A stretch of 64,000 nt of DNA from Candidatus Peribacteria bacterium (GCA_023038255.1 CP082927.1:18436-82435); one strand, 5' to 3'; shown: positions 12,011 through 45,104, numbered from the stretch's first letter. Notes: a model not told the origin generated them from the letters alone. Translations and numbers: made by a program.

Positions 12011-12772
12011 ATGTCCGCCATCTTCCTGGATCCCATTGTCGCCATCCCGCTCCTGGCCATTCTCGGTCTGGTGTTTGGAAGTTTCGGGAACGTGCTGATG
12101 GATCGCGTCACCTCGGAAAAAAGTATGGGAGGGCGGTCGCACTGCATGAGTTGTCATCGCATTCTCACGCCGTGGGAACTGGTGCCGGTCATCAGTTTTT
12201 GTGCACTGCGCGGCAAGTGCTATCAGTGCAAAGCACAGATTCCCTGGGAATACACACTCATTGAATTACTCGGTGGTGCGCTCTTTGTGGTTGCCGGCAT
12301 GCTCACATCGTATGCGCTGCTGCCTGCACTCTTTCTTGCGCTTGCACTCTGGTCCATGCTCCTCATCGGCATTGTCGATGCCCGCACGCAGCTTATCCCC
12401 GATCTCCTGACAGCCGTCCTCGGATTGAGCGCGCTTCTCTATCACGTCTTTCTCGGTGATGTTGTCTGGACCGGCGCCCTTCTTGCGTTCGCGTTTTTCG
12501 GGCTGCAGTGGGCCCTCAGCCGCGGCCACTGGGTTGGCAGCGGTGATATTCTCCTCGGCATCGCACTCGGGCTCCTGCTTGGCCCCTGGCAATACGTAGT
12601 GGTGATGTTAATGGGTGCATACATTGTCGGCGCCCTTCTTGTTTCCGTCTTACTCGGACTCGGGTCCATCTCCCGCACACAGCATATCGCCTTCGGGCCG
12701 TTCCTGGTCGTGGGCACAGTCATCTCGCTGTTGTTTGGGGAGGTGATCTTACGGGTAGTGTGGCCAATGTAA
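12011..12772 (+). CDS. pilD: prepilin peptidase (A24 family)
   Basis: Cys-rich N-domain CMSCHRILTPWELVPVISFCALRGKCYQCKAQI followed by a polytopic A24-like core. Confidence 0.85.
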   Translation: MSAIFLDPIVAIPLLAILGLVFGSFGNVLMDRVTSEKSMGGRSHCMSCHRILTPWELVPVISFCALRGKCYQCKAQIPWEYTLIELLGGALFVVAGMLTSYALLPALFLALALWSMLLIGIVDARTQLIPDLLTAVLGLSALLYHVFLGDVVWTGALLAFAFFGLQWALSRGHWVGSGDILLGIALGLLLGPWQYVVVMLMGAYIVGALLVSVLLGLGSISRTQHIAFGPFLVVGTVISLLFGEVILRVVWPM

Positions 12773-12910
12773 AAAAAATCGGACTCACTCATGGAGAGGA
12801 GCCCGATAATATTCTACGCCAGTCGTGAGGCCACTAAGGGCTGTTCGCTGGCGATGAGCTTCTATTCTCTTCGGGAGGACAGGAGTTCACCGCCAAGAAC
12901 GATGACTGAC
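12771..12910 (-). ncRNA. candidate ~140-nt structured RNA, class unknown
   Basis: Minus-strand TTGACA-16 nt-TAGAAT promoter and an intrinsic terminator: stem 12780-12786 / 12799-12805 with a G-U pair that forms only on the minus strand, then U8. 5' and 3' ends can pair. No convincing ORF. Confidence 0.35.
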
Positions 12911-12916
12911 GAGGTA

Positions 12917-12944
12917 ATTCTATGGGTTTTTGGCAATTTGTCAA
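12917..12944 (-). promoter_or_regulatory. sigma70-like promoter TTGACA-16-TAGAAT for the candidate RNA
   Basis: -35 at 12939-12944 and -10 at 12917-12922, read as reverse complement. Confidence 0.5.
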
Positions 12945-12958
12945 CTATTTTGTACACT
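12930..12958 (+). promoter_or_regulatory. sigma70-like promoter TTGGCA-17-TACACT (TG-extended) for smpB
   Basis: -35 at 12930-12935 and -10 at 12953-12958. Overlaps the divergent promoter. Confidence 0.45.
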
Positions 12959-13006
12959 GTTTCACGCACAGAAACTCCCCTACACTGCCATTCTGCAATT
13001 TCCCCT

Positions 13007-13447
13007 ATGAAAACAGTCGCAAGTAACCGCCGGGCACGTTTTGACTACGACATAGTCGAAACCATTGAGGCTGGGCTGGTGTTGACCGGTCCGGAAGTGA
13101 AATCCTGCCGTTTGGGGCATATCGACTTAAGTGGCGCCTATGTCTCGTTTTTACATGACAAACCTGCGCTCAAGCAGTGCAAAATCTCGCCATATCCGTT
13201 TGCAGCAGCCACAGAAATCCTGCCGATCGGGCGGGACAAGCCGTTGCTCCTGAAAAAAGCGGAGGCGGAAAAATTGCAGACACTCCTCAGCCAGAAAGGA
13301 ATCAGCGTTATTCCTTTGGAAGTGAAAGCAGGAAAATACATCAAAGTGGTGATTGGAATCGGTAAAGGACGGAAGACGATTGATAAGCGGAAAGTGATTA
13401 AAGAAAGAGATATCAAAAAGAGATTGAAGAAGGGGGAGGAAATTTGA
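13007..13447 (+). CDS. smpB: SsrA-binding protein
   Basis: NRRARFDYDIVETIEAGLVLTGPEVKS and a basic C-terminal tail. Start moved to ATG 13007. Confidence 0.9.
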   Translation: MKTVASNRRARFDYDIVETIEAGLVLTGPEVKSCRLGHIDLSGAYVSFLHDKPALKQCKISPYPFAAATEILPIGRDKPLLLKKAEAEKLQTLLSQKGISVIPLEVKAGKYIKVVIGIGKGRKTIDKRKVIKERDIKKRLKKGEEI

Positions 13448-14092: not shown

Positions 14093-14139
14093 AAATGGCC
14101 CCTTTCGAGGCCTGGGTTCTTTCTTCCTCACCTGTGCTG

Positions 14140-14349
14140 TTATTTCTGGCGGTACTTTTTCCGGGGCTTTTCTGTTGAAAATAAACCCGCAAAATATGCC
14201 GCAGAAACCAATCCAGCCACCATCACTATCCATGCCCACCACGAGTCGCCAACAGGGTTCCCAGCGTGTCCGCTGATGCCCAAAAGGGTTGAACCGGATA
14301 ACATAACGGCGGAACTGACAAGGATGCCTACAATCTGCATAAAGCGCAT
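14140..14349 (-). CDS. small two-helix membrane protein
   Basis: ATG 14349 is preceded by GGAG. Two hydrophobic segments and a basic C-terminus. Confidence 0.4.
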   Translation of the reverse strand: MRFMQIVGILVSSAVMLSGSTLLGISGHAGNPVGDSWWAWIVMVAGLVSAAYFAGLFSTEKPRKKYRQK

Positions 14350-14483
14350 GCCATTCTCCAAAGAAAGGATCAATCAGAACGATGTGCTCTGATGTATTAG
14401 TATAATAATACATATGAATAGTATGTCAATTACCGATGCTCCCCCCCCATCTCCCATGCCCCATTGCGGAAATGAGGCTTTTT

Positions 14484-27514: not shown

Positions 27515-27589
27515 TGGAGCCGCTTGTCGGATTTGAACCGACGACCTACTCATTACAAGTGAGTTGCTCTACCACTGAGCTAAAGCGGC
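27515..27589 (-). tRNA. tRNA-Thr (anticodon UGU), CCA encoded
   Basis: Cloverleaf folded by hand: acceptor GCCGCUU/AAGCGGC, anticodon loop CUUGUAA, T-loop UUCAAAU. Confidence 0.9.
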
Positions 27590-27739
27590 GTACTTACGGA
27601 TTTTACCCTATTACTCATACCCGACCGAGTTACATTGTTTCCTGACGCCTCACTATGTGAGGCTGGGCACTGAGCTAAAGCGGCGAACTTAGGAACTCGG
27701 GCACTTTACATTTGCTGAGGCAAAATCCCAAGCCTTTTA

Positions 27740-27768
27740 TTGTCAAATTCAGGCATTTCCGGCATAAT
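27740..27768 (+). promoter_or_regulatory. promoter TTGTCA-17-CATAAT for rnpB
   Basis: -35 at 27740-27745 and -10 at 27763-27768. Confidence 0.5.
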
Positions 27769-27771
27769 AGG

Positions 27772-28147
27772 GTTCTGCTCTTTGATGATCGCCCCAATCC
27801 AGCCTCGGCTGAGATTGTGGGAGGAACGTCCGGACTCCACTGAAACGCCATGCGGCTAACGGCCGTCGCCTCGATATAATCCATAAAATCGGGGTAGGAC
27901 AAGTGCCACAGAGACGATCCCCTTTAGTGGGGAGTGAAACGCCACGGAGTACCGTGGATTGTGCAACACACGTGTATGCATAATCGGTAAACTCATGGTG
28001 GAGCAAGGAGGAATTGGGTTTTTGGAATCAGTGATGGTTTCGTCACTCCATCTACCCCTCCGCATCGAGGTATCCAGGCAACTGGTACCCCAGAGAGATG
28101 ATCATCCACTCGCAAGAGTGACAGAATCCGGCGTACAAGAGCAGGAT
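27772..28147 (+). ncRNA. rnpB: RNase P RNA, bacterial type
   Basis: Conserved GAGGAACGUCCGGACUCC, AAGUGCCACAGAGACGA and ACAGAAUCCGGCGUACAAG. P1 pairing of 27772-27782 with 28137-28147. Confidence 0.85.
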
Positions 28148-28153
28148 AAAGCA

Positions 28154-45029: not shown

Positions 45030-45104
45030 GCCCCTGTAGTTCAACGGATAGAACAGTCCCGTCCTAAGGGATAGATATTGGTTCAATTCCAGTCGGGGGC
45101 ACCA
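45030..45104 (+). tRNA. tRNA-Arg (anticodon CCU), CCA encoded
   Basis: Hand-folded: acceptor GCCCCUG/CGGGGGC, anticodon loop GUCCUAA, T-loop UUCAAUU. Confidence 0.9.

Follow-up and report, generated by a model that had tools for sequence, protein, structure and literature searches.

A probable structured RNA gene divergent from smpB in Candidatus Peribacteraceae

The stretch of DNA analysed here (the window, 64,000 nt) is G000:C1:18436–82435, part of the genome of a tiny, uncultured Candidatus Peribacteraceae bacterium of groundwater type (Peregrinibacteria, candidate phyla radiation (CPR)). This genome, G000, is a single contig of 1.24 Mb and is rated 99% complete. Within the window, pilD and smpB are separated by a spacer of 234 nt (12773–13006), the length first noted for it and one with which the coordinates of the two open reading frames (ORFs) agree. 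The minus strand of this spacer is predicted to carry a gene for a structured RNA, with pilD as its convergent and smpB as its divergent neighbor. An initial annotation of the window had proposed a promoter- and terminator-bounded small RNA (sRNA) gene of about 140 nt at this place, and the conserved promoter, the terminator and the covarying helices described below support that proposal. The features of the locus are listed here; MFE denotes the minimum free energy fold, and R1 and R2 are the covariance models introduced below.

12939–12944, minus strand: −35 box TTGACA of the RNA gene, from the promoter scan; a similar box is found in 39 of 41 homologous loci
12917–12922, minus strand: −10 box TAGAAT, separated by a 16-nt spacer, from the promoter scan; TAnnnT-type hexamers lie in the same place in relatives
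12817–12912, minus strand: conserved RNA core, a predicted three-way junction (R1, 73.4 bits; R2, 67.6 bits; MFE and consensus folds, covariation)
12911–12904 with 12824–12817, minus strand: helix P1 (MFE and consensus fold)
12900–12875 with 12869–12843, minus strand: helix P2, the long arm (MFE and consensus fold)
12859–12885, minus strand: distal P2 module, CUCCUGUCCUC (12885–12875) opposite GAGAAUAGAAG (12869–12859), with a conserved C×A mismatch; invariant in six congeners
about 12842–12829, minus strand: helix P3, a short hairpin (MFE and consensus fold)
12779–12807, minus strand: terminator stem-loop (MFE fold); a GC-rich hairpin of differing sequence lies in the same place in most relatives
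12771–12778, minus strand: U8 tract, read from the sequence; two of its positions coincide with the final two bases of the plus-strand pilD stop codon
12011–12772, plus strand: pilD, prepilin peptidase, convergent neighbor of the RNA (Pfam A24_N_bact, 2.7e-25; Peptidase_A24, 7.1e-09)
13007–13447, plus strand: smpB, divergent neighbor of the RNA (Pfam SmpB, 3.4e-38)

The promoter of the RNA gene, TTGACA-16-TAGAAT at 12944–12917 on the minus strand, has 11 of 12 matches to the consensus in the promoter scan. It had been named in the initial annotation and is kept across Peribacteraceae loci: of the 41 homologous loci examined, 39 have a −35 box similar to TTGACA, placed 32–45 nt upstream of the start of the model. 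The region holds four promoter-like sites against 2.2±1.3 in shuffled sequences. A single site is not significant against the shuffles, and the promoter of the RNA is significant only because it is conserved in relatives. Transcription would start at about 12910. The terminator hairpin, AUCGGGCUC…GAGUCCGAU, contains one G·U pair and is followed by U8 (12778–12771); as first described, it is present both in the sequence and in the MFE fold. Its stem in the window is irregular, and a simple terminator scan did not list it. Most homologous loci have a GC-rich hairpin and a T-run downstream of the RNA, and the sequences of these hairpins differ between loci.

The earlier statement that the minus strand has no coding sequence for this promoter to serve is borne out, as a transcript would meet the terminator and then the convergent pilD, with no coding sequence downstream on the same strand. 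A cis-regulatory leader or riboswitch was rejected on these grounds. The RNA was also rejected as a coding sequence, its core being without an AUG.

The smpB start codon is the ATG at 13007 (position 13009 is not in the reading frame) and lies about 97 nt from the predicted start of the RNA; SmpB has an ordinary length of 146 aa. A mechanical ORF list extends smpB to an upstream ATG at 12791 (12791–13447, 218 aa), across the RNA gene. This extension is taken as an artefact because the SmpB domain begins at residue 4 from the 13007 start and the proteins of relatives begin MKTVA…. The pilD ORF ends in TAA at 12770–12772. The plausible smpB promoter of the initial annotation, TTGGCA-17-TACACT (12930–12958), has 9 of 12 matches in the promoter scan, and neither hexamer is kept in the five congeners, where TTGGCA becomes TTAGGG, TTGGTG, TTATTG, TTATAT or TAATAC and TACACT becomes AACGCT, AACGCT, GTCACT, TTTACT or CTCCCC. 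A block C-C-C/A-T-A-C/A-A-C-T-G-C (window 12979–12990, with TACACT or TAAACT), about 20 nt upstream of the smpB ATG, is kept in all six species and may be the better candidate for a −10 region or leader of smpB.

The minus-strand stretch that was folded is 142 nt long, and the RNA core within it is about 97 nt. The MFE of the 142-nt stretch is −59.3 kcal/mol, whereas shuffled sequences average −37.4 (z = −5.2); none of 200 shuffles folds as well. The plus strand folds about equally well (z = −5.15), and therefore energy alone does not pick the strand. The two pairings named at the outset, CGUCAGUC/GACUGGCG and UUGGCGGUGA/UCAUCGCCAG, are both in the MFE structure. The rod-like shape drawn from them stands only in part, as the pairings are retained but the predicted fold is a three-way junction of P1, a long P2 and the short P3 hairpin rather than a simple rod. 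RNAalifold, applied to a MAFFT alignment of the six congener RNAs (74% mean column identity), returns P1, the long P2, a 5-bp P3 hairpin and the terminator.

Conservation and covariation of the spacer in relatives had been named beforehand as a test of the RNA, and both are found. In the six-congener MAFFT alignment, which is not fitted to any model, compensatory double changes occur in 15 of the 45 RNAalifold pairs. In an alignment of 17 sequences, 94.6% of 609 pair cells hold standard pairs and 32 of 37 pairs show double changes, figures to be read with the fact that this and the later alignments (A4 to A6) are fitted to the covariance model and lean towards it. None of 500 shuffles of the 17 sequences reaches any of five pairing measures, and when the pairing partners are slid by 1–3 columns as a control, 34.8–46.0% of the cells are paired. 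In a 30-row alignment, from which a probably spurious row (L070:473–567) had first been removed, the 22 column pairs of highest mutual information all coincide with predicted pairs (loci in homologous sequences carry the prefix L). No pseudoknot signal stands out above the helices in the mutual information of the 30 rows.

The pair cells of the 17 sequences comprise 502 Watson-Crick, 74 G·U, 8 A·C and 25 other cells, and one U·G pair is present in 16 of the 17 sequences. Covariance-model scores are at most 24.6 bits for the reverse strand versus 41.6–103.2 bits for the forward strand. Because 74 cells are G·U and only 8 are A·C, and the plus strand would carry 74 A·C mismatches, the minus strand appears to be the functional one. 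The G·U pairs and the model scores thus agree on the strand to which the RNA had been assigned.

Of 41 genomes searched at the DNA level, with G000 counted among them, 13 matched, including all five congeners. The pilD–smpB spacers of the six congeneric species measure 234 to 535 nt. Their smpB-proximal part, with the −35 and −10 boxes, the structured body and the terminator hairpin, aligns throughout the six, and the extra length of the longer spacers lies between pilD and the terminator. Covariance model R1, built from six cores with 37 pairs, finds the RNA in 11 of 151 family genomes (5 of 84 genera). All six new R1 loci consist of a pilD-like ORF, the RNA on the opposite strand and smpB, and in all of them TTGACA and TAnnnT boxes and a terminator with unrelated sequence are present. 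Model R2, built from 17 sequences, finds the RNA in 22 of the 151 family genomes and 13 of the 84 genera, with one full-length match each. Among near relatives, R2 matches 8 of 24 genomes of the same family and none of 15 genomes from other families of the class. Inspection by eye of seven smpB upstream regions from other families of the class revealed no comparable unit.

The site expected for the RNA, defined as the minus strand within about 300 nt upstream of smpB, has an R2 match in 33 of 46 Peribacteria-type smpB loci (named metagenome-assembled genomes, L048–L093). These 33 matches comprise 17 obtained with default filters, 12 with filters off and four, also with filters off, among the six of the 46 loci that were scanned last. 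Two of the 13 loci without a match (L052 and L073) have a truncated upstream flank, and in three others (L065, L071 and L074) a TTGACA promoter, a junction-like RNA and a terminator can be seen by eye. In a control set of 29 smpB loci of other taxa (97 kb, filters off), three matches of at least 16 bits were obtained, none of them at the expected site. So far the RNA has been seen only in Candidatus Peribacteraceae.

The order pilD–RNA–smpB, mostly continued by recR, is kept in 32 of the 36 loci checked, several of which are the same genome obtained through two collections and were not de-duplicated. L083 and L085 show a joint inversion of the RNA and smpB, which lie there between recR and pilD. 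In L078 pilD is not upstream and the RNA stays with smpB. In L137 the RNA and its promoter remain next to pilD, and smpB is not adjacent. The linkage of the RNA to smpB is frequent, not absolute, and is indistinguishable from inherited gene order.

The letters conserved across the family, taken as those present in at least 80% of the 30 rows, are GUCA on the 5' side of P1 and UG.C on its 3' side, G-C-G at the base of P2 adjoining a bulged nucleotide, and, in P3, a U and a G located at the loop and where the 3' strand begins. Most lineages have a long P2 whose distal, sequence-conserved module places CUCCUGU… opposite …AUAGAAG with the conserved C×A mismatch. In L045, L083, L085, L076, L057 and L072, P2 is reduced to a few pairs and the module is absent. 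Short P2 arms are capped by tetraloops, UUCG in L072 and L071 and GAAA in L016. Because the short-P2 forms lose the module and keep a tetraloop-capped arm, the junction is taken as the constant part of the RNA and the distal P2 module as accessory. The only long unpaired stretch of the RNA is the A/U-rich linker that separates P1 from the terminator, and this linker is not conserved.

A second hairpin resembling distal P2, CUCUGUACUU…GAGAAUAGAG, is found in one congener at L009:455–506 (= G002:C5:9538–9589), where it scores 22–24 bits. The hairpin sits where about 1 kb is inserted between smpB and recR, an insertion absent from G000, and no second copy of the distal P2 motif was found in the G000 genome.

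None of the 4227 models of Rfam 15 matches the RNA. The scan of the window at gathering thresholds returned only RNase P and two tRNAs, all away from the locus. At E ≤ 10 the locus itself gave only microRNA and snoRNA chance matches and a terminator-driven match to sX11 (14 bits), and at the position of the RNA in 20 + 12 homologous loci (E ≤ 10 or E ≤ 5) there was nothing beyond chance matches to microRNAs, snoRNAs and other families. An Rfam scan for signal recognition particle (SRP) RNA, 6S RNA and others had been proposed in the initial annotation; at the locus it yields no match to SRP RNA, tmRNA or 6S RNA. The view that the RNA is not a tmRNA holds, with no RF00023 match at the locus and a one-piece tmRNA with a tag peptide elsewhere in the genome. 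The failure to match it to SRP RNA is repeated with the models RF00169 and RF01854, neither of which matches the locus or any of the 32 homologous loci.

SRP RNA was rejected on wider grounds as well. The best match in the whole genome scores 14.1 bits and lies in apparent coding sequence elsewhere, RF01854 gives no match, and nothing reaches threshold. The partner protein Ffh was not found, as PF02978 (SRP_SPB) and PF00448 (SRP54 GTPase) each have 0 matches in G000. In the class sample, PF00448 matches 0 of 41 genomes (G000 and 40 relatives), and the controls are recovered in 14 of 14 cases. The combination of DTAGR, a P-loop and TKxD, which we take to be the GTPase motif of the SRP type, is absent from all six frames of G000. 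The genome is without Ffh or FtsY. Loss of SRP in CPR bacteria is already known, since the available text of PMC8080830 states that two SRP subunits are absent in many of them.

Several other identities were tried and rejected. For 6S RNA (RF00013) there is no match at the locus, and a better though sub-threshold candidate lies elsewhere, at G000:C1:141287–141440 on the minus strand; it covers the full model with 35.7 bits (E = 5.9e-6), below the Rfam gathering score of 46.4. For 5S rRNA (RF00001) there is no match at the locus or in its homologues, the second arm of the RNA is only a 5-bp hairpin, and the true 5S gene is at C1:196039–196153 (81.8 bits). A mimic of 5S helix III, suggested by the motif CCUG…AGAAG, was also rejected, as the register supported by covariation has a C×A mismatch and not an AA bulge, and there is no 5S match. 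A repeat of the repetitive extragenic palindrome (REP) or miniature inverted-repeat transposable element (MITE) type was dismissed, as the locus is single-copy in the 1.24-Mb genome and the other matches are of 14–23 nt at E ≥ 0.5. A hammerhead-like CUGAUGA occurs in two species only and is hence ascribed to chance.

Comparison with known RNAs reveals partial likenesses. The RNA resembles the bacterial small SRP RNA (4.5S, RF00169) in its size of about 100 nt, in a closing helix between the 5' end and a 3' segment and in a long irregular hairpin, as well as in being single-copy with a strong promoter of the housekeeping type and a terminator. It differs in the side hairpin that makes a three-way junction, in having no helix-8 tetraloop or loop motifs and no model match, and in its setting, as the genome and 40 relatives are without SRP54-type GTPases and offer no Ffh to bind. 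It resembles the protein-sequestering 6S RNA in being a highly paired RNA with its own promoter, and presumably also in stability; unlike 6S RNA (RF00013), a rod of about 180 nt, it is about half the size, has no large central bubble and matches no model. Bacterial Y RNAs, which are bound by Ro/Rsr, have a 5' end that pairs with a 3' segment in a sequence-conserved stem, and a multi-helix body, features that recall the RNA described here. Y RNA was nevertheless rejected: unlike Y RNAs, this RNA is not adjacent to an rsr gene, PF05731 (TROVE/Ro) has 0 matches in the genome, and there is no Rfam match. Orphan structured ncRNA motifs from comparative genomics, for example the raiA motif (ModT; PMC11706538), are likewise defined by covariation and conserved synteny, are lineage-restricted and at first had no known function; unlike them, the RNA of the pilD–smpB spacer is related to no Rfam 15 model and is restricted to a CPR family.

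These features suggest that the minus strand very probably carries a genuine structured RNA gene. In the mechanism that we propose, a strong constitutive sigma-70-type promoter would start minus-strand transcription at about 12910, and the transcript would fold into a three-way junction, with P1 pairing the 5' end with a 3' segment, P2 forming a long arm of variable length and P3 a short hairpin. Transcription would stop at the hairpin and U-tract, at 12771, and the product, closed by P1, would accumulate as a stable and abundant structural RNA. Its folded junction core would bind a protein, as the SRP, 6S or Y RNAs do, rather than pair with mRNAs, and the distal P2 module would provide an accessory site for binding, one since lost from some lineages. 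A folded shape recognized by a protein is favored because the RNA is almost fully paired and its sequence is conserved in the helices and the junction (GUCA, GCG, UG.C), because there is no conserved single-stranded seed, and because the single peripheral module is modular and lost in some lineages. The closure of the RNA by P1, which pairs its 5' end with a 3' segment as is seen in stable RNAs, also favors this reading. That the RNA works as a protein-binding structural RNA through its junction core is a tentative proposal, to which we give slightly less than an even chance. The explanation as a whole, that of an independently transcribed and uncatalogued noncoding RNA (ncRNA) gene of Candidatus Peribacteraceae with the mechanism included, we regard as evenly balanced between being right and wrong.

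Several observations weigh against this explanation. Detection in whole genomes is confined to 22 of the 151 family genomes, and the wider presence consists of weak matches (15.8–40 bits) judged by their position, among which L054 (19.3 bits) and L055 (16.5 bits) are without a promoter and doubtful. The model-fitted alignments A4 to A6 inflate the pairing percentages, and the unfitted six-sequence alignment is small. The linkage to smpB is for the most part a matter of conserved synteny, and L137 breaks it. The expression, ends and abundance of the RNA are all predictions from sequence, and the protein-binding mode is deduced from fold and conservation, with a partner protein that is only postulated.

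Other modes of action are weighed against the same evidence. It is unlikely that the RNA is a trans-acting base-pairing sRNA that controls mRNAs, for example those of smpB or the pilus genes, through a short seed. A stand-alone promoter and terminator unit of sRNA size would suit such a regulator, and the pyrimidine-rich strand CUCCUGUCCUC can be read as resembling an anti-Shine-Dalgarno sequence. Nearly every nucleotide, however, lies in a covarying helix; the C/U-rich stretch, too, is paired and covaries, and the short-P2 lineages do not have it at all; the unpaired 3' linker is not conserved. Distinctly unlikely is a coupling to SmpB and trans-translation, in which the RNA would bind SmpB or its promoter would compete with the divergent promoter of smpB. 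The predicted start of the RNA some 97 nt from the smpB ATG, the order kept in 32 of the 36 loci (not de-duplicated), the joint inversion in L083 and L085, and L078, which keeps RNA and smpB together without pilD, all fit this coupling. Against them stand L137, in which the RNA is next to pilD and smpB is not adjacent, and the equal synteny of recR and pilD, by which the adjacency may be inherited gene order. The tmRNA is moreover of the normal one-piece kind with a tag peptide, SmpB is of ordinary length, and neither hexamer of the overlapping smpB promoter is conserved. Decidedly improbable is an orphan aptamer or ribozyme, a ligand-sensing or catalytic RNA with the conserved three-way junction as its active site. 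The conserved nucleotides do cluster at the junction and the peripheral arm is length-variable and tetraloop-capped, as peripheral arms are in many aptamers and small ribozymes, but there is no downstream gene on the same strand to regulate, no riboswitch or ribozyme of Rfam 15 matches, and there are very few conserved nucleotides outside pairs from which a pocket could be built.

Descent from a universal RNA, as a very divergent or relic SRP RNA, 6S RNA or 5S-like RNA, is very improbable. No SRP RNA reaches threshold anywhere in the genome, the size and rod-like shape recall 4.5S RNA, and CCUG…AGAAG in distal P2 can be read as a loose echo of 5S helix III. Nevertheless, no such RNA matches at E ≤ 10 in the window or at E ≤ 10 or E ≤ 5 in the 32 homologous loci. 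The RNA has neither a GNAR tetraloop nor an AGCA loop, and no Ffh M domain or SRP54-type GTPase is present. The genuine 5S (81.8 bits) and the 6S candidate (35.7 bits) lie elsewhere, and the pairing register differs from that of 5S helix III. Hardly credible is a plus-strand origin of the signal, as an element of the pilD–smpB transcript (a 3' untranslated region or leader), a REP or MITE repeat, or a chance hairpin. The equal folding of the plus strand (z = −5.15) and the lack of a terminator of its own for pilD before the spacer would agree with an element of the pilD–smpB transcript. The 74 G·U cells would then be A·C mismatches, however, the promoter and U-tract are conserved and have the orientation of the minus strand, and the RNA keeps the same direction relative to smpB in L083 and L085, where pilD is elsewhere. 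A repeat is opposed by the single copy in the genome, and a chance hairpin is excluded by the conservation and covariation.

Apart from the RNA gene, the window holds RNase P RNA class A (143 bits) and two tRNA genes (27518–28150 and 45030–45101), all from the Rfam scan. A second near-consensus minus-strand promoter, TTGACA-16-TATTAT, is found at 14429–14402 and has 11 of 12 matches. The minus-strand stretch 14097–14429 was considered as a second sRNA and rejected. It has a GGAG ribosome-binding site, a hydrophobic ORF of about 70 codons, two terminator-like hairpins and a fold z of −1.0, and it looks like an ordinary gene for a small membrane protein.

A search of the literature on Peregrinibacteria and SRP, on sRNAs of Peribacteria and on structured RNA in CPR bacteria (supplementary files lay outside the search) found no description of this RNA. 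In the available text of the Peribacteria genome paper PMC4736985, Rfam is used only for rRNA and the RNA is not mentioned. Judged by its sequence, fold and distribution, the RNA appears to form a new family of a known general kind, the stand-alone structured bacterial ncRNA. Descriptions of CPR ncRNAs beyond rRNA, tRNA, RNase P and tmRNA were not found in the literature searched. CPR bacteria represent a large share of bacterial diversity.

The covariance model is ready for use in annotating Peribacteraceae genomes, in which the RNA gene is a marker of conserved synteny, and the RNA is a defined candidate for a biochemical partner search in organisms that are not yet culturable. There is a slender chance that it serves as the scaffold of an unrecognised housekeeping ribonucleoprotein in an SRP-less CPR lineage, working with SmpB in ribosome rescue or replacing the task of a universal ribonucleoprotein. 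If the RNA is a ribonucleoprotein component, it would be an addition to the very short list of housekeeping bacterial RNAs, and if it is such a housekeeping scaffold, it would represent a new class of essential bacterial RNA and not a dispensable regulator.

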